The position numbers and the translations under genes were made by a program. This document shows, one piece after another, positions 427-5,842 of a DNA stretch of 5,842 nucleotides. Under the pieces are notes generated by a model, which saw nothing but the letters and a program-made list of their open reading frames with translations, had not been told where the DNA came from and ran no database searches. This DNA is from a virus (lineage: Duplodnaviria; Heunggongvirae; Uroviricota; Caudoviricetes). The DNA lies in the IMG/VR virus record IMGVR_UViG_2695420676_000007. One strand, 5' to 3'. The stretch's first letter is position 1, and each line of letters opens with the position of its first letter.

Positions 427-611
427 AAGTTGTGTGGCGAAGTAACCACTCTTGAGAGCATATCTGATTATTTACGATTGTAAATAATATATTCCCCCCA
501 ATAATTAGATTGAGAAAACATTACCATATTGATAATAAGGCAATTGACATAATTATAAAAATCATTCTTGGTTGATTTTAAAACAACAAATGCACGATAT
601 TTACCCAATCA

Positions 612-640
612 TTGATGAATACATCTCTAAATGTTATAAA
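612..640 (+). promoter_or_regulatory. Candidate sigma70 promoter for the 691..1962 gene
   Basis: -35 TTGATG (612..617), 17-bp spacer, extended -10 TGtTATAAA (632..640); AGGA Shine-Dalgarno at 677..680 before the ATG at 691. AT-rich context gives many promoter-like hexamers, so this is a prediction only. Confidence 0.4.
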
Positions 641-690
641 TTTATTGTTTTTCTAAAGATAACTCTCATTCATATCAGGAAAGATAAAAA

Positions 691-1962
691 ATGTCAGACA
701 TAAAAAATATACTAAAATGCATGTACTTTGATAAAAATAGATACTCAAACTTTGGCTCCGTAATTAAAAGTCTAGAGATAAATGGATTTCGAGGAATAAA
801 AAAACTAACATTAAATATAAATTTTCCGGTAACTGCAATATCAGGGCTAAACGGCGCTGGGAAAAGCACTCTTGGGCAGTTAGCAATATGCGCATATAAA
901 AAACCAGTTACAGCCCGTGAATATAAGAGATTATATATTAAAGATTTTTTCCCTGTATCTAAAGCCGATCCAGCCCCTTTCGATAATGACGCCAGTGTCA
1001 TTTATAAATATGAAACAAATGATTCAACGAAAACACAAGATGTGACTGTCACTCGCATAAAGTCTTCTTGGTCTGGATATAAAAGACAACCAGAAAGACA
1101 CTGTTTTTACATTGGTTTTACTGTCTATATTCCAAAAGTAGAACGTAGAGATATAAGTGTTTATGGCGGTAAAGACTTTGATTTAACAGAGAGAAGAAGC
1201 GTCGACCATTCAGTAATATTGAAGATGGCAAAAATAATAGGTCATCCATATGATGATATCGCATTCCAAGGAATTTCTCATAGAGCACGTCGTTCAGAAA
1301 TTGGTATTGTTGAAAGACTTGGGTATTCTTATTCTGAAAATAACATGGGGTTTGGCGAAGGAAGAGTTCTTTATACGGTTGATATGCTTGAAACAGCTCC
1401 AGAGCAAAGTCTTTTCGTACTAGAAGAACCAGAAACATCTCTTCATGAAAGCGCACAGTATGAATTTGCAAAATATTTAATGGAAGTATGTCAACGTAGA
1501 AAACATCAAATAATATTATCAACACACTCAAGTGTGATATTAAATGCTTTACCTCCTGATGCACGAAAATTACTTATTAGAGATCAGACTGGTGTCTATA
1601 TCAAAGATGGAATTTCAACAACTCATGTGAGATCAATACTGTCTGATGGGCAGTTTAAAGGGCTGCATATTTGCGTAGAAGACCAGTTTGCAAAAGTTTT
1701 ACTTAGTGAAGTAATTAGAGCAAAGCGGAGAGACATTCTTAAATCCATTCAAATCACTGATATTGGAGATAAAGATGCAGTCCGACAAGCAGTCGAGGTA
1801 TTCAAGAAAGCAGGCCTTAATGTTATTGCCGTAAGAGATGCAGATGTTGGAGAAAACATTAAAGATGATTTATTTTCTTTCCCTGGCAATAGGCCACCAG
1901 AAGTAGAAGTATTTCAACATGAGGAAGTAAAAAAAATTCCTCTACAAGGAGTATCATATTGA
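691..1962 (+). CDS. ABC-type P-loop ATPase (AAA_21/OLD-like) fused to a short C-terminal TOPRIM-like domain; candidate anti-phage defence or exclusion protein; 3' end apparently frameshifted
   Basis: 423-aa ORF with Walker A GLNGAGKST (aa 52-60, nt 844..870), Walker B LFVLEEPETSLH (aa 241-252, Asp replaced by Glu at 245) and H-loop ILSTHS (aa 275-280). The C-terminal region (aa ~320-390) has ICVED (E330) and VRDADVGEN (D383-x-D385), reminiscent of the TOPRIM Glu...DxD signature of OLD/DUF4435 nucleases. It lies on the strand opposite to all flanking prophage genes, in markedly AT-rich DNA with its own promoter and RBS. Confidence 0.85.
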   Translation: MSDIKNILKCMYFDKNRYSNFGSVIKSLEINGFRGIKKLTLNINFPVTAISGLNGAGKSTLGQLAICAYKKPVTAREYKRLYIKDFFPVSKADPAPFDNDASVIYKYETNDSTKTQDVTVTRIKSSWSGYKRQPERHCFYIGFTVYIPKVERRDISVYGGKDFDLTERRSVDHSVILKMAKIIGHPYDDIAFQGISHRARRSEIGIVERLGYSYSENNMGFGEGRVLYTVDMLETAPEQSLFVLEEPETSLHESAQYEFAKYLMEVCQRRKHQIILSTHSSVILNALPPDARKLLIRDQTGVYIKDGISTTHVRSILSDGQFKGLHICVEDQFAKVLLSEVIRAKRRDILKSIQITDIGDKDAVRQAVEVFKKAGLNVIAVRDADVGENIKDDLFSFPGNRPPEVEVFQHEEVKKIPLQGVSY

Positions 1963-2143
1963 TTTTGATTGGTTAATAAAAAAGGAAGGGATTAGTGATC
2001 ATCACAATTACACTCAAGCAATTGCTAAAGAAGCAGAATGTGAGGAGGAAGTAATTAGAACTTTAGCAATAAAAAAATATATTGAAATTATTGATGAGAA
2101 ATTTGACCCACTTATTACAAATATAGTAAGCAAAATAAAATAA
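1931..2143 (+). other. +1-frame open continuation of the ATPase gene (KKFLYKEYHIDFDWLIKKEGISDHHNYTQAIAKEAECEEEVIRTLAIKKYIEIIDEKFDPLITNIVSKIK*)
   Basis: The +1 frame is open from just after a TAA at 1928..1930 through to TAA at 2141..2143 (71 codons, no ATG). It begins inside the A8 run at 1929..1936, 30 nt before the annotated stop. An open frame of this length in roughly 30-35% GC DNA is unlikely by chance. Confidence 0.5.
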
Positions 2144-2153
2144 CAAACCAGCA

Positions 2154-2188
2154 GGCGCTAATTACTAAAAACCTTGTACATTAGCGCC
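2154..2188. repeat. Perfect 9-bp inverted repeat (GGCGCTAAT-N17-ATTAGCGCC) between the convergent ATPase and Q genes; possible terminator or operator
   Basis: Arms at 2154..2162 and 2180..2188 are exact reverse complements. On the minus strand a T-rich tract (TTTGTTATTTTATTTT) follows after a 6-nt gap; on the + strand no T-run follows. It lies 11 nt after the extended-frame stop at 2143. Confidence 0.45.
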
Positions 2189-2315
2189 ACCCTCAAATAA
2201 ATCAGTGGTTATTAAATCCCCACAAAAACATTAATATAAAGCACAAACAGTCCACCCTCCTTAATTTCATGCTAACAATACAAATTAAAAATCCAGATAC
2301 TCATAAAATATCTTT

Positions 2316-2687
2316 CTAGATATTTGAGTCCATTTCCAATTCTATTTCTAACATTATCAACATACCTTCAATGATGCCTTCTGCCTTTTGCAATAAGCGC
2401 CCAACCCAGCAATCAGAACGCCCATGTTTACGGGCAAGCGCCATAAACGTCATACCACCTACATAATAATCTACTAATAAATCGTGCAAATCGCTGTTGT
2501 TCTTTTTCAGACGGGCCATGCACCCGCAAATGATCATCGCGTCATCGTCACAACATTGCGGGCGGGATTTTACTTTTGAAGGAAGTAATCCCTTAAAACC
2601 GGCAGCAATGGACGACCAGGTCACATCCTCATGATTATTAGCCGCCCATGCCCCCCAACGTTCAAGAACCATTTGAATATCACGCAT
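2316..2687 (-). CDS. quuD: Late-gene antitermination protein Q (short QuuD/phage-82-type Q)
   Basis: The translation from the ATG at 2687 ([62 protein letters not shown]...) matches my recollection of the DLP12 QuuD antiterminator family, including the Cys-rich zinc motif. The six-frame start at 2702 is a TTG; the ATG at 2687 is preceded by GGAGGA with 6-nt spacing. Stop TAG at 2316..2318. Confidence 0.85.
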
Positions 2688-2704
2688 CAACTTCCTCCAC
2701 AAAA

Positions 2705-3385
2705 TCAGGCCAGCACGCCTATTGCCAGCGCACGATCGATAAAACGAAATATCAGCTCCAACTGGGAGCCATACTTCTCTTCAAATGCCACGGTATCCGC
2801 ATGCAGCTCGTCGTGATGCTTTCTGCACAAAGGCAACACAAAGAGGTCATGCGCTTTTGTACCCATTCCACCCTGACCGTGGCCTATCAGGTGGTGGGGA
2901 TCATCAGCAGGCTTTCCACAACATGCACACGGCTGTGTCTTAACCCAGCGCGTGTACTTTTCGTTAACCCAGCGGCGACGTTTTGGGCGTAACATAAAAG
3001 ACTCCGGCGACTCCGGATCCACTTTCAGCGCCAGCACCTTTTTCACTTTATCCTGGATGATGCTGGTGGCAGGAACCGAAGGAACAAGGTCACTTTCCCG
3101 GGTGACAGACGGCACAACAGGCTTCGGTAATCTCAGTGCCTTACGGGCTGCACTTTCCGGCAAGGCACCCGCCAGGTCATTACGAACCAGCCACCAGCAC
3201 AGTTCCGGCATTGTCACAACGTGACTGTCATCAAAACCGAGATCCCGACGCACAACAGACAACACCCAGCGGGCACAGTTATCCGTTGCCATTGATTCCA
3301 GCCGTTCCGTGAACTGATCGCGCAGCTGGTTATCGCAGTGCCAGCACAGACGGATTGCGCCCGGAGCGTGTCGCATTGTGGTCAT
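2705..3385 (-). CDS. DUF968-like (YdfU-like) Cys/His-rich phage protein; putative zinc-binding nuclease-like protein of the nin region
   Basis: 226-aa ORF with motif [44 protein letters not shown], which I recall as typical of DUF968 proteins found just upstream of Q in E. coli prophages. The ATG at 3385 overlaps the stop of the upstream ORF (ATGA). Family name from memory, not verified. Confidence 0.7.
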
Positions 3386-3690
3386 GTTCTCGCTGTGCCA
3401 GTCGGAATGAGGCCACTGGCAGCCAGTAACCAGCTTTCAAGACATTCCACGCCACCAGCACGACGGATCACTGCCTCATTGCGGAACACGGCCCGAACGG
3501 CAGGATCATCCGCCAGCGGTTGTGATGCCGCCGGAACGGCGCCACTGGCGAAAGATGAATAACTTTCCGGCTCAGGCTCCAGCAGGACACGCCCCTGCAT
3601 AAACAGGGGCATCAGCTCTGAACCAGGCCTGAACAATACGATCCCCATACGCGGGGCAATTTCAGGGGTCAGTAGTGCTCTCACGGTCAC
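3382..3690 (-). CDS. Hypothetical protein (about 100 aa or shorter); start codon uncertain
   Basis: ORF exactly filling the gap between the KilA-N gene stop (3692..3694) and the DUF968 gene start, with an ATGA stop/start overlap at 3382..3385. The first codon at 3690 is GTG with no clear Shine-Dalgarno; internal ATGs exist. It could be a separate gene or the detached N-terminal part of the downstream protein. Confidence 0.4.
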   Translation of the reverse strand: MTVRALLTPEIAPRMGIVLFRPGSELMPLFMQGRVLLEPEPESYSSFASGAVPAASQPLADDPAVRAVFRNEAVIRRAGGVECLESWLLAASGLIPTGTART

Positions 3691-3691
3691 C

Positions 3692-4489
3692 TCAATGAAC
3701 GGTATCGAGCAGCTTTAACAGCTCAGTGAATCGGGATTCGAAGAAATGCGGCTGCGTCTCGCGCGGATTTGCAGGACTGGTGATGTTCTTGCCGAACATG
3801 CAGCCTTTCGCCGTCAGCGACCAGAATTTTTTGATGTTGTTAATCGCTGTACGGCTGTATCGTTCGCGCTGTTCGACGATCCCCAGCTTCGCCATCTGGT
3901 GATATGCCTGATTAGCCGTCAGGCGGATACCATACTGCTTCAGCAGTGCACTCAGTGACAGCGTGGGGCGGCTTGAGCCATCAGGCGCGTCAGCAGGAGC
4001 ATCAATGGCATAACGCGGTGCCAGATTCGGTAAGCCAACAGCCTCCTGGAGTTTCTGACAGGCCCCAAGCACAGATGAGTTAGACAGATTTAACTCCCGG
4101 CGCATAAAGTCCAGCAGAATCACGCCAGCCTGCATCTTGTCAGCAGCCTGTCCGGATAACTTTTCCGGCGCGCTGGTTACCATATCGAAAGTACGGATCA
4201 CCTTCAGATGGAATGACGGGCTGATCCACATTGCATAGGCATACACCAGTTCCTTGCAGACATACGTTCCCTGGTTATTTCCACCTCGAATGACATTTAC
4301 TGGCGCTATATTGACCGAGTTGCAAATCTGCAACTCGCTTATTAAACGTTCAGTTTGCTCATTGCGGAGCCAGAATGCAGGCTTATGCTTATCCAGAGAA
4401 CCGGCAGCCCTGTGCAGATCGTTCAGGCTGTAACGACCATAAGCATCACGACGAACTTCAATACCATCAATAACCATCAGATTACTCAT
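3692..4489 (-). CDS. KilA-N domain protein with ANT/KilAC-like C-terminal region (Roi/antirepressor-like)
   Basis: N-terminus (LNDLHRAAGSLDKHKPAFWLRNEQTERLISEL ... VIRGGNNQGTYVCKELVYAYAMWISPSFHLKVIRTF) fits the KilA-N consensus; the C-terminal TLSLSALLKQYGIRLTANQAYHQMAKLGIVEQ resembles ANT/KilAC modules. ATG at 4489 is preceded by GAGGAG with 9-nt spacing. Confidence 0.85.
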   Translation of the reverse strand: MSNLMVIDGIEVRRDAYGRYSLNDLHRAAGSLDKHKPAFWLRNEQTERLISELQICNSVNIAPVNVIRGGNNQGTYVCKELVYAYAMWISPSFHLKVIRTFDMVTSAPEKLSGQAADKMQAGVILLDFMRRELNLSNSSVLGACQKLQEAVGLPNLAPRYAIDAPADAPDGSSRPTLSLSALLKQYGIRLTANQAYHQMAKLGIVEQRERYSRTAINNIKKFWSLTAKGCMFGKNITSPANPRETQPHFFESRFTELLKLLDTVH

Positions 4490-4508
4490 ACTTCGTTTCT
4501 CCTCTTAA

Positions 4509-4898
4509 TCAGGCGGCTGCACCCGCCGTTTTCTCGTACTTACTGATAGTGATTTCGACCTTCCCTTCCGGGATAACCGGCCCCCACTCCACCAGCATTC
4601 TTTTCACCTGGCTGTCGTCCACCCACACACCCGCGTGGGTCAGGGCGTCAAACAGCGCCTTGTTATAGTTGTCCAGATCGCGAAGCCGGTTATCCGGAGG
4701 AAACAACACGATCTCCACTGAAGCTGGTGCCGACGTTGGTTTCGGCAAACGACGTAACTGCTCAATGATGGCTGCACACGCTGCGCTCTGGAATTTTCGC
4801 CCCGCCGCGCTTATCAGGCTCTTACCTGCAAGCGCCCCTTTATTGGGGTGTCGCCAGTACGTGTTCACGCTGGGCGGAAAAGGCAGGATCAATTTCAT
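4509..4898 (-). CDS. rusA: RusA-family crossover junction endodeoxyribonuclease (Holliday junction resolvase)
   Basis: 129-aa protein with LPFPPSVNTYWRH near the N-terminus and the RLRDLDNYNKALFDALTHAGVWVDDSQV catalytic core, which align with E. coli RusA (LPWPPSNNRYYRH ... [28 protein letters not shown]). ATGA overlap with the upstream gene. Confidence 0.9.
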   Translation of the reverse strand: MKLILPFPPSVNTYWRHPNKGALAGKSLISAAGRKFQSAACAAIIEQLRRLPKPTSAPASVEIVLFPPDNRLRDLDNYNKALFDALTHAGVWVDDSQVKRMLVEWGPVIPEGKVEITISKYEKTAGAAA

Positions 4899-5221
4899 AC
4901 TTTCAGGCCCCTCTCATGTAACCAGTGGGCTGCACGCAGCCTGGCGTTTTCCTCACCGGCAAGCAGTGAGCGGATAATCCCGACCGCCTCGCTGTCGTCG
5001 TCCTTCACCGCGGTATGAAGAGTGATACCCCGGGCCACGCCACGCTTTATCGTGATGACGCCTTTTTTCTCCAGTGCGCGGAGGTGCTCCACAGCTGCAT
5101 TCACTGAACGGTATCCCAGCATGGTTGCCACCTCCTGATTGGTTGGCGGAAAGCCACGCTCTTTCTGATAAGAAATCAGCATATCCAGCACCTGCTGCTG
5201 GCATTGAGTTAACGTCGTCAT
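4895..5221 (-). CDS. LexA N-terminal DNA-binding-domain protein lacking the S24 peptidase domain
   Basis: MTTLTQCQQQVLDMLISYQKERGFPPTNQEVATMLGYRSVNAAVEHLRALEKKGVITIKRGVARGITL aligns closely with the LexA N-terminal wHTH ([65 protein letters not shown]). Only about 35 residues follow, so no protease domain. The six-frame start at 5254 is GTG; I prefer the ATG at 5221..5219, which overlaps the upstream stop (TAATG) and follows a GGGGG run. Confidence 0.75.
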   Translation of the reverse strand: MTTLTQCQQQVLDMLISYQKERGFPPTNQEVATMLGYRSVNAAVEHLRALEKKGVITIKRGVARGITLHTAVKDDDSEAVGIIRSLLAGEENARLRAAHWLHERGLKV

Positions 5222-5709
5222 TACGCCCCCACGTAATTCCCTGACAGATACCACTCTTCACCCGATGCAGCGCGCTTGCTGCTTTTCTGTAAGCACTGCT
5301 CACGACGCGCCAGAAAATTGTTTCGTTCTGGCTGGGAGTGGCTTTCACGGAATGCCGCCATCCACACGGTTGCAGCACGACGGTATAAGCCCCTTGACTC
5401 CAGTTCTTCAGCCTGGCGGGTCAGGCACAAAATCACCCGGGGCTCGTTAGTGCCGACATAGAAATTGCGCACAGGTCTGGTTTCACGAACTGGTTGTGGT
5501 TCCGGATCCTGCGCTCTCTCAGTCAGGCGCGGGAAATGTCTGTGTGTATCTCCTTCACAACGGTGAGCCACACGACCACTCTGACGTAACTTGCTTGCTG
5601 ACTGCAGAACGCGCTGCCGTGAGTAACCTGCAAAAGCATCCGCAATGTCTCCGGAAGTACACCCCGGATGGGCTTCAATGAATTTCTGAACTTCATTCAA
5701 AAGACTCAT
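5221..5709 (-). CDS. Putative transcriptional regulator: N-terminal wHTH-like region plus PerC/ANR-like C-terminal motif
   Basis: The C-terminal region AEELESRGLYRRAATVWMAAFRESHSQPERNNFLARREQCL matches what I recall of the PerC/Pch family motif (LE..GL[WY]RRAA..W), common in E. coli prophages. The six-frame start at 5715 is GTG; the ATG at 5709..5707 is preceded by AGGGGGTGA. Family assignment from memory, moderate confidence. Confidence 0.6.
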   Translation of the reverse strand: MSLLNEVQKFIEAHPGCTSGDIADAFAGYSRQRVLQSASKLRQSGRVAHRCEGDTHRHFPRLTERAQDPEPQPVRETRPVRNFYVGTNEPRVILCLTRQAEELESRGLYRRAATVWMAAFRESHSQPERNNFLARREQCLQKSSKRAASGEEWYLSGNYVGA

Positions 5710-5711
5710 GA

Positions 5712-5842
5712 TCACCCCCTGAATCCTGCCGGGATCTGGCTGTAGTCCACGTTGTCGTAACTGGCTTTGAAGTACGGGTCCTCGCGTCTGGCTGCAGATA
5801 CCGCAGGAACTTCCCAGGATTCTTCGAAATGACGATCCGGAC
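5712..5842 (-). CDS. Partial ORF, C-terminal 42 codons of an upstream nin-region gene running off the window end (...PDRHFEESWEVPAVSAARREDPYFKASYDNVDYSQIPAGFRG*)
   Basis: Minus-strand frame open from the window edge to TGA at 5714..5712, two nt before the next ATG (5709), consistent with the coupled gene spacing elsewhere in this operon. Another minus frame is also open here; this one was chosen on composition and stop position. Confidence 0.4.
   Translation of the reverse strand, partial: PDRHFEESWEVPAVSAARREDPYFKASYDNVDYSQIPAGFRG

Follow-up and report, generated by a model that had tools for sequence, protein, structure and literature searches.

Why should an AT-rich block with a gene on the opposite strand lie between the late-gene antiterminator Q of a lambda-like prophage and the late genes? 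The question is raised by a stretch of 5,842 nucleotides (hereafter the window) from the IMG/VR virus record IMGVR_UViG_2695420676_000007, which is part of an Escherichia coli lambda-like prophage and runs in the orientation opposite to phage transcription. The initial annotation, made from the sequence alone, had described a minus-strand Q gene, a plus-strand open reading frame (ORF) and minus-strand genes further left, with an island of distinct composition at 450-2310. Both the gene layout and the island were confirmed. The best explanation overall, which we hold with a probability of about 0.8, is that the block is an exchangeable moron cassette, located in the slot between Q and the late promoter pR', and that its plus-strand ORF (the cargo gene) is a nuclease gene of the OLD-type/HEC-04 kind.

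The composition of the block was distinct by every measure used. In a sliding-window profile, each 200-bp interval of 401-2400 had a G+C content of 24-39%; to the right of the block most intervals had 45-61%, with two at 4201-4500 reaching only 46%. By segment, it was 32.9% for 485-2328 (and likewise for 450-2310), 53.5% for 2329-5842 and 44.6% for 1-484. A two-breakpoint maximum-likelihood segmentation placed the changes in composition at 459 and 2375, and improved the log-likelihood by 114 nats relative to a model of uniform composition. At the codon level, G+C content at third codon positions was 21.5% in the plus-strand ORF, compared to 47-66% in eight minus-strand phage ORFs. Within the cassette, the 5' region of the cargo gene has 24.3% G+C and the gene itself 34%. 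The block therefore has the feature expected of a moron, a composition distinct from that of the flanking phage genes.

Alignment to related prophages with other cargo gave independent limits, with which those first proposed agree to within some 35 bp (left) and 20 bp (right). BLAST breakpoints fell at 484 on the left, and on the right at 2329 (loci L004 and L005) or at 2356 (porin type, L003). The left junction adjoins the -35 hexamer of the late promoter (alignment A1). The right junction lies four codons upstream of the Q stop, such that the cassette contains the last four Q codons and the stop (2316-2328; alignment A4). As this junction is inside the 3' end of Q, each cassette brings its own final Q codons and stop.

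The island is rare, and its place is taken by other sequences in related phages. Of 5426 complete E. coli genomes, 11 (0.2%) contained it, every copy being at least 99.7% identical, and a sensitive blastn search of 50,697 phage records gave no match. The window as a whole matched in part in 4551 of the 5426 genomes, with coverage of at least 80% in only 10. Apart from one homopolymer, described below, the island in the window differs from the 12 other copies at only 1-3 positions. The same slot contains an opposite-strand porin gene in strain PEC41 (L003), and an opposite-strand gene for a 148-amino-acid protein, with a lipoprotein signal sequence predicted from its N-terminus, in strains UTME-1 and EC2341 (L004, L005) and in phage PhiR40_1. 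In the Shiga toxin (Stx) phage 933W the slot is empty, and the Q stop overlaps pR'. The block is thus present or absent among close phage relatives, as expected of a moron, and is foreign and non-ancestral, as had been claimed; the relatives did not show it as a conserved ancestral sequence with a phage function. Unlike cassettes share identical junctions on both sides, which fits replacement through recombination in conserved flanks. From these alignments, phages appear to exchange cassettes without transposition, through recombination in two conserved flanks, the 3' end of Q and the region of pR' and its terminator tR'. Non-coding flanks were not shared with other genera: DNA similarity to homologues in Klebsiella and in metagenomes was confined to the coding region.

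What does the cassette encode? The predicted cargo protein matches a HEC-04/IbfA-type single-gene defence ATPase-nuclease. The ORF matched AAA_15 (7.9e-21) and AAA_21 (2.2e-14) in Pfam. Its best match in PADLOC was HEC-04 (PDLC04149; E 6.8e-47), with residues 5-410 aligned to positions 7-403 of the 494 in the profile. This was 25 orders of magnitude ahead of the next match (2.2e-21), and the PADLOC 'Old' model lay outside the best 25 of 129 matches. Intact relatives carry a 483-residue allele annotated as 'ATP-dependent nuclease', and homologues of 482-484 residues with 58-78% identity were found in Klebsiella, Vibrio, Pseudomonas, Aeromonas, Shewanella, Methylomonas and others. The Walker A residue K58, the Walker B residues E245/E246, H279, and the TOPRIM residues E330 and D383xD385 were invariant in 16 aligned sequences (alignment A2). 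The family also matches phrog_3940, which groups phage proteins of unknown function.

Searches with structures gave a similar picture. The best sequence match in the PDB was the class-1 OLD nuclease 6p74 (5.8e-7, phmmer). An AlphaFold model of the cargo protein had an overall pLDDT score (predicted local distance difference test) of 72, with values >90 for the TOPRIM domain and the C-terminal helical part, and it too showed the ATPase and nuclease domains fused. The top Foldseek matches (E 1e-11 to 1e-14) were GajA (8x5i, 3.5e-14), 6p74 (1.1e-13) and the retron-Eco8 OLD effector.

[quoted passage not shown] IbfA, a homologue of HEC-04 on an IncI1 plasmid, gives an abortive-infection-like interference phenotype (PMC12111858). 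The cargo protein has the same architecture as both, an N-terminal ABC ATPase and a C-terminal TOPRIM domain in one polypeptide, and its residues K58, E330, D383 and D385 correspond to K62, E319, D375 and D377 in the tested protein. It differs in that the kinship is at family level, with partial coverage of the HEC-04 hidden Markov model, as given above, and in residue numbering. The genetic settings are also different: HEC-04 is embedded in Hma systems and IbfA is found on IncI1 plasmids (R64, pUA1135), whereas the cargo gene is a prophage moron, which is frameshifted in the window.

The architecture of ABC ATPase and TOPRIM is shared with the class-1 OLD nucleases (P2 Old and the Thermus scotoductus OLD protein, 6p74) and with GajA of the Gabija system. 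Like the class-1 OLD genes, the cargo gene stands alone, without a helicase partner and, unlike Gabija, without one resembling GajB. It is the one gene in the cassette, which has no helicase, retron or AriB partner gene; its neighbours are Q and the late promoter. The cargo protein is shorter (483 residues, compared to 528 for the 6p74 chain) and has only 11-14% sequence identity to this group. P2 Old is longer still, with about 586 residues.

One group of homologues was found in a different setting. In Klebsiella, a 75%-identical homologue (L010-L013, gene 6001-7452) adjoins genes for a ClpP-protease/capsid fusion, a HEPN protein and an AAA_25 protein. This context has the appearance of a satellite-like or remnant phage element and is unlike the slot between Q and pR'. 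The Klebsiella gene has 37% G+C, compared to 47-62% in its flanks, and only its coding sequence is common with the window.

The initial annotation overlooked that the cargo gene is frameshifted in the window. Pairwise alignments with L001, L002 and the IMG/VR copy L076 showed a single extra A in the window (A8 rather than A7); for the 11 genome matches, A7 was judged from match length, since all of them span 1843 bp compared to 1844 bp for the query. The frame after the extra A stops at 1962, following eight wrong residues, and the product has 423 residues. The other 12 copies encode 483 residues and so have the intact, full-length reading frame of HEC-04 and IbfA, which the window lacks. Among the 68 residues that are lost are the near-invariant D424, W427, H437, H438 and E447 (alignment A2), in a part of the model where pLDDT is >90. 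As the frameshift removes 68 conserved C-terminal residues, the window copy most likely has no activity, provided that the additional A does not stem from a sequencing error. Programmed frameshifting at A8 was considered and rejected, as A7 and a continuous 483-residue frame were found in 12 of 12 other copies, and all homologues likewise have a single frame. A second homopolymer differs within the island: the run of six C at 494-499, upstream of the cargo gene, has seven in L076.

Where is the late promoter in relation to the cassette? It was found on the minus strand immediately to the left of the cassette (Table 1). The promoter contains a near-palindrome, TTTACAATCGTAAA (484-471), as the candidate element for Q binding. 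Next to the promoter come a conserved motif, AGAGTGGTTACTTCGCCAC (452-434), that spans the qut site annotated in 933W, and then tR', with a stem at 426-405 and a T-run (fold energy -20.1 kcal/mol, z -2.6). Position by position, the whole of 484-398 aligned with features annotated in 933W, namely pR' (TTTACG-16-TATCAT), qut and the first terminator (AF125520 20666-20748; alignment A1). In contrast, phage Ayreon, which has an unrelated Q, has only the terminator and downstream sequence in common with the window, and the promoter part is absent; its record annotates a terminator at the position of tR'. No second palindrome was found in the window, and no second initial transcribed motif, of which 0 matches are expected by chance in the window; neither was present beside Q. 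A late promoter inside the island was therefore rejected, there being no pR'-type element directly downstream of Q.

By this reading of the sequence, the cassette is placed between Q and pR' rather than between pR' and the lysis genes. The island does separate Q from the late and lysis genes, as had been proposed, but the late promoter lies to the left of the cassette and not on its Q side. Since pR', qut and tR' are intact and the cassette is upstream of them, late transcription from about 450, which depends on Q, need not cross the cargo gene. This sets the window apart from 933W. The two share homologous -35 and -10 elements, qut and tR', and the downstream gene order is similar in relatives of the window. 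However, 933W has no insert, and its cargo (tRNAs and stx) is downstream of pR' and tR', on the same strand and under Q control, whereas the cargo gene in the window is upstream of pR', on the opposite strand and outside Q control.

The near-palindrome behaves as a Q-binding element would be expected to, because it co-varies with the type of Q. In 105 loci drawn from the IMG/VR matches listed in the survey described below and from reference loci (L015-L134 among them), the type of palindrome matched the cluster of the Q protein (eight clusters at >=75% identity), with 0 exceptions. The palindromes are of types such as TTACGATCGTAA, GCGTACGC, GCGGTCCGC, TGTTATAACA and GGAATTCC, one per Q cluster, and overlap the -35 hexamer and the spacer. 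An A-run follows the palindrome in most loci, and ATTTT or AAATT in a minority. This position agrees with the report that qut is partly located between the -35 and -10 elements (PMC6266700).

Constitutive transcription from pR' to tR' would yield a minus-strand RNA of about 50 nucleotides (approximately 398-450). For Stx phages, the homologous by-product has been reported to act in lysogens as a small RNA with a regulatory role (PMC8065619).

How might the cargo gene itself be expressed? A candidate promoter, with TTGATG (612-617), a 17-nt spacer and TGnTATAAA (632-640), precedes it, together with a candidate ribosome-binding site, AGGAAAG (677-683). A consensus scan also gave weaker plus-strand promoter-like sites at 478-505 and 529-556. 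All copies are near-identical, and conservation is thus uninformative on the cargo promoter. Between the cargo gene and Q there is a G+C-rich hairpin (Table 1), with a fold energy of -17.1 kcal/mol and z -3.6 on the plus strand, and z -1.2 with a U-rich tail on the minus strand. The terminator scan did not call it, as its loop is too long and a clean plus-strand T-run is lacking. The hairpin is a candidate bidirectional transcription stop between the convergent units. A 22-codon minus-strand ORF, MKLRRVDCLCFILMFLWGFNNH, lies at 2202-2270, immediately downstream of Q and within the cassette. Its peptide has a basic N-terminus followed by a hydrophobic stretch, and resembles small membrane or toxin peptides. 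It is without a clear ribosome-binding site, and its copies are identical and hence give no comparative signal.

By analogy with HEC-04, the class-1 OLD nucleases and GajA, we propose how an intact cassette could work. In a lysogen, the cargo gene would be expressed from its own AT-rich promoter. The ATPase module would sense an infecting phage and license metal-dependent DNA cleavage by the TOPRIM domain, and the superinfecting phage would be stopped, possibly at the cost of the cell. The hairpin would separate the two convergent transcription units. Early rightward, antiterminated transcription that passes Q would meet the cargo gene head-on, and may switch it off upon prophage induction, sparing the replication of the phage itself.

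Table 1. Position of the cassette, its parts and the neighbouring genes in the 5,842-nucleotide window.
Feature	Position	Strand	Evidence or remark
Cargo cassette, defined by homology	485-2328		BLAST breakpoints, junction alignments A1 and A4, composition
Cargo 5' non-coding region	485-690	plus	Candidate promoter and ribosome-binding site, read from the sequence
Truncated ABC-ATPase/TOPRIM (OLD-type) nuclease ORF, 423 residues	691-1962	plus	Pfam, PADLOC, fold search
A8 homopolymer, frameshift site	1929-1936	plus	A7 in every other copy
Out-of-frame remainder of the gene, conserved C-terminal 68 residues of the 483-residue protein	1937-2143	plus	Translation of L001:6691-8142
G+C-rich hairpin between cargo gene and Q	2154-2188		Stem GGCGCUAAU/AUUAGCGCC
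Late promoter pR'	457-484	minus	-35 TTTACA (484-479), 16-nt spacer, -10 TATGCT (462-457); promoter scan
pR' initial transcribed region and intrinsic terminator tR'	398-452	minus	Terminator scan; 933W homology
Small ORF, first downstream of tR', 64 residues	84-278	minus	phrog_331 2.4e-35, function unknown
Late-gene antiterminator Q, PF06530 (quuD/933W) type	2316-2702	minus	Pfam Phage_antitermQ E 1.8e-51; phrog_79 1.1e-51
DUF968 (YdfU-type) gene, split in two in the window	2705-3690	minus	
KilA-N gene	3692-4489	minus	
rusA	4509-4898	minus	
LexA-DNA-binding-domain gene	4895-5254	minus	
PerC-family gene	5221-5715	minus	

Several points weigh against the identification of the block as a defence moron. 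The ATPase half of the structure model is of low confidence, with several segments of pLDDT <50, and template modelling (TM) scores to the OLD and GajA structures were just 0.3-0.4. No NCBIfam model reached its cut-off for the cargo protein. Identity to the tblastn matches on enterobacterial plasmids, which are annotated simply as 'AAA family ATPase', was only about 23%; these are probably IbfA-type genes. The cargo protein is a distinct branch of the HEC-04/IbfA family. Its presumed role in defence is drawn from kinship, at the level of the family, with a single HEC-04 representative that was tested. The cargo promoter is a prediction, and promoter-like sites are not in excess (13, compared to 10.1 +/- 3.2 in shuffled sequence); the hairpin is likewise predicted. 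Finally, the truncated copy in the window may do nothing.

Could the block have another origin? DNA downstream of Q in lambdoid phages is often AT-rich and contains pR' and tR', and on that ground the block might be ordinary ancestral late-regulatory DNA, with a late promoter, a 6S-like RNA and a conserved phage gene. This reading failed on comparison with related prophages, and we give it next to no credence: pR', qut and tR' are outside the block, 99.8% of complete E. coli genomes lack the block, and unrelated sequences replace it in near-identical prophages. A search of 1-2800 for 6S-like, pR'-derived or antisense RNA gave no Rfam match even at a permissive threshold. Insertion by a transposable or site-specific integrating element would account for the sharp boundaries in composition and for the single cargo gene. 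It is nonetheless very improbable, as the ORF list and Pfam gave no transposase or integrase gene in the cassette, terminal inverted and flanking direct repeats at the island were limited to short matches at chance level, and different cassettes are found at exactly the same two junctions. The island thus has none of the features of an insertion sequence or transposon (transposase, terminal inverted repeats, target-site duplication).

Other explanations accept the cassette but differ on what its gene does, or on its state. Proteins of the OLD family first came to notice in phage P2, where they affect the host and lambda. The ATPase-nuclease could serve the phage's own cycle or act on the host (in replication, recombination, or killing of recBC hosts as by P2 Old) rather than in defence; the match to phrog_3940, of unknown function, and the non-defence roles proposed as possible for IbfA homologues by their authors (PMC12111858) would agree with this. 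We consider such a role unlikely. The phage can do without the gene, which is missing from almost every prophage of this type and from the empty slot of 933W, and which is encoded on the opposite strand and belongs to none of the phage operons. In addition, the matching PADLOC family was directly anti-phage when tested, and the Klebsiella homologues are found in unrelated mobile-element contexts, as is typical of defence cargo. The initial annotation had also suggested a toxic or tightly controlled gene, silenced by H-NS. The former gains indirect support, in that IPTG (isopropyl beta-D-thiogalactopyranoside) induction of the HEC-04 representative was impossible due to apparent toxicity (bioRxiv 10.1101/2024.01.29.577857). 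Such toxicity would also favour binding and silencing of the island by H-NS, keeping the gene off in a lysogen, as would the low G+C content of the 5' region (24%) and the gene (34%), with A+T well above the host average. However, a fully silenced defence gene would not persist, and the conservation of intact 483-residue copies at 58-78% identity over many genera indicates that the gene is in use; silencing is plausible, but we judge it less likely than not. This weighing takes into account that H-NS prefers AT-rich acquired DNA in E. coli, the genome of which averages about 51% G+C. A slightly stronger case, which we still judge to be somewhat on the losing side, can be made for A8 as a homopolymer error of sequencing or assembly, with an intact gene that functions in defence in the real organism. 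A single A added to a run of seven is the sole change of reading frame in the cargo gene, homopolymer slips are the commonest type of long-read error, and the rest of the island is almost identical to the other copies. On the other side, the window has a 10-bp deletion in the DUF968 gene, at 3424, which is not of homopolymer type. The deletion leaves ORFs of 226 and 102 residues, whereas five of five related prophages compared have an intact gene of 329 residues (990 bp with the stop). Real decay is therefore likelier than a simple read error, and the deletion and A8 together suggest a decaying prophage or an imperfect assembly.

Is the slot between Q and pR' used for cargo more generally? To survey it, IMG/VR was scanned for AGAGTGGTTACWTYGCCAC, the motif from the initial transcribed part of pR'. 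The first 120 matching contigs were listed, and the comparison covered 109 loci in which a Q could be recognised upstream (105 in viral contigs and four in references). The sample contains redundant phages, which counts against any wide generalisation from it, and the fractions that follow, which apply to the matches listed, are illustrative and not a census or population estimates. In 31 of the 109 loci the Q stop was 0-10 bp from the promoter, and the remaining 78 had an insert of 0.5-3.0 kb between Q and pR'. The inserts had 31-42% G+C in every gap, compared to 42-49% for the adjacent Q, and the largest insert ORF was on the opposite strand in 66 of 78. There were roughly 30 or more distinct inserts. 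It had been claimed that the late promoter normally follows Q directly, but for this family of Q an insert is nothing unusual: 78 of the loci have one, and the arrangement is that of quuD-nmpC in DLP12 and 434.

Cargo in the slot was matched in part to known or candidate defence families. Of 21 cargo types scanned with PADLOC (20 representatives from the survey and the cargo of the window), eight had a match and the other 13 had none. The eight were Kiwa KwaB (3.5e-150, with a membrane-protein partner), the P-loop NTPase PDC-S20 (3.3e-177), PDC-M53A, PDC-S42, the HNH protein PDC-M68A, NsnA/PD-T4-2 (beside a predicted cytosine methyltransferase), a second HEC-04-like ATPase-TOPRIM protein of 596 residues at locus L095 ('Old' model 2.4e-13), and the HEC-04-type nuclease of the window. 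Pfam, applied to ten cargo representatives, had no match for seven, and identified two NA37 (nucleoid-associated protein) proteins and one metallo-beta-lactamase fold. Many of the inserts contain a pair of opposite-strand genes, which encode a soluble protein of about 270-360 residues and a membrane protein of 130-190 residues (loci L026, L058, L060, L098, L106, L023/L097 and L020/L094); one such pair is Kiwa. The others, mostly without a PADLOC or Pfam match, could be Kiwa-like or new defence pairs. A further ORF, of 148 residues on the minus strand at 1118-1564 in the window, forms survey cluster C22 solely because L076 has the same island. The whole of it runs antisense to the nuclease gene, the coding region of which is strongly conserved, and it is thus probably a by-product of AT-rich antisense sequence.

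We tentatively suggest, as an idea that we would not yet favour, that the gap from the stop of a PF06530-type Q to the -35 element of its cognate pR' is a dedicated, widespread and uncatalogued defence hotspot of lambdoid phages. The literature searched, coverage of which was incomplete, gave no earlier description of this gap as a defence hotspot, which is weak evidence. If the suggestion is true, the cargo, which is almost always AT-rich and convergent with the early operon, would be active in the lysogen, shielded from late transcription driven by Q, and silenced by antisense early transcription on induction, and the uncharacterised cargo would be new anti-phage systems. These would include the recurrent pairs of soluble and small membrane proteins, the two NA37 proteins, and the proteins of 339, 379 and 427 residues without a Pfam or PADLOC match.

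There are precedents for both the position and the principle. In DLP12 ('qsr') and phage 434B, a gene of the same Q family is likewise followed by opposite-strand cargo ahead of the lysis genes, and the Q gene of the window has 87.6% DNA identity to that of 434B. The cargo there is different, being the outer-membrane porin nmpC rather than a nuclease; a porin fills exactly this slot in L003. The quuD-nmpC layout of DLP12 and 434B is the classical precedent, and the moron concept covers the general case. The closest analogue of a position-defined defence reservoir is provided by the P2 and P4 hotspots, in which a fixed intergenic position between conserved genes contains many alternative AT-rich defence cassettes (2022, PMC9122126). 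Those belong to another phage family and to another position, the slot in the window being that from Q to pR' in lambdoid phages.

The genes around the cassette are those of a lambda-like prophage (Table 1). The start of Q is annotated in RefSeq relatives at the equivalent of 2687, and its product in L001 and L002 as 'antiterminator Q family protein'. Equivalents of the small ORF downstream of tR' are annotated coding sequences in L001, L002, L003, L005, L007 and L009. Beyond it the relatives continue, leftward and outside the window, with a DNA methyltransferase, holin, lysozyme and Rz/spanin, which puts the late and lysis genes at the place that the initial annotation had supposed. Compared to its nearest relatives, the window has almost no divergence over the island, pR' to tR', the small ORF and most of Q (1-2600), and 2-10% farther right (2600-5842), with a highly divergent patch at 4300-4400 compared to strain H8. 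This profile suggests the usual lambdoid mosaicism, in which the cassette would travel together with its Q and pR' flanks.

For the window alone the result is modest: its cargo is a known kind of defence gene in a known type of variable position, and is probably inactivated here. The composition island is then explained as a rare prophage-borne copy of a recently validated single-gene ATPase-nuclease defence, probably inactivated by a slip of one base. As the cargo is upstream of pR', unlike stx, which is downstream, its expression is expected not to depend on Q and to take place in the lysogen. The wider interest is in the slot and in the promoter beside it. The Q-type-specific palindrome is a predicted Q-binding element for several uncharacterised subtypes of Q. 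With varied AT-rich inserts, and matches to known or candidate defence families for 8 of 21 cargo types, the slot could give cheap defence candidates in lambdoid phages through 'guilt by position', as the P2 and P4 hotspots did.

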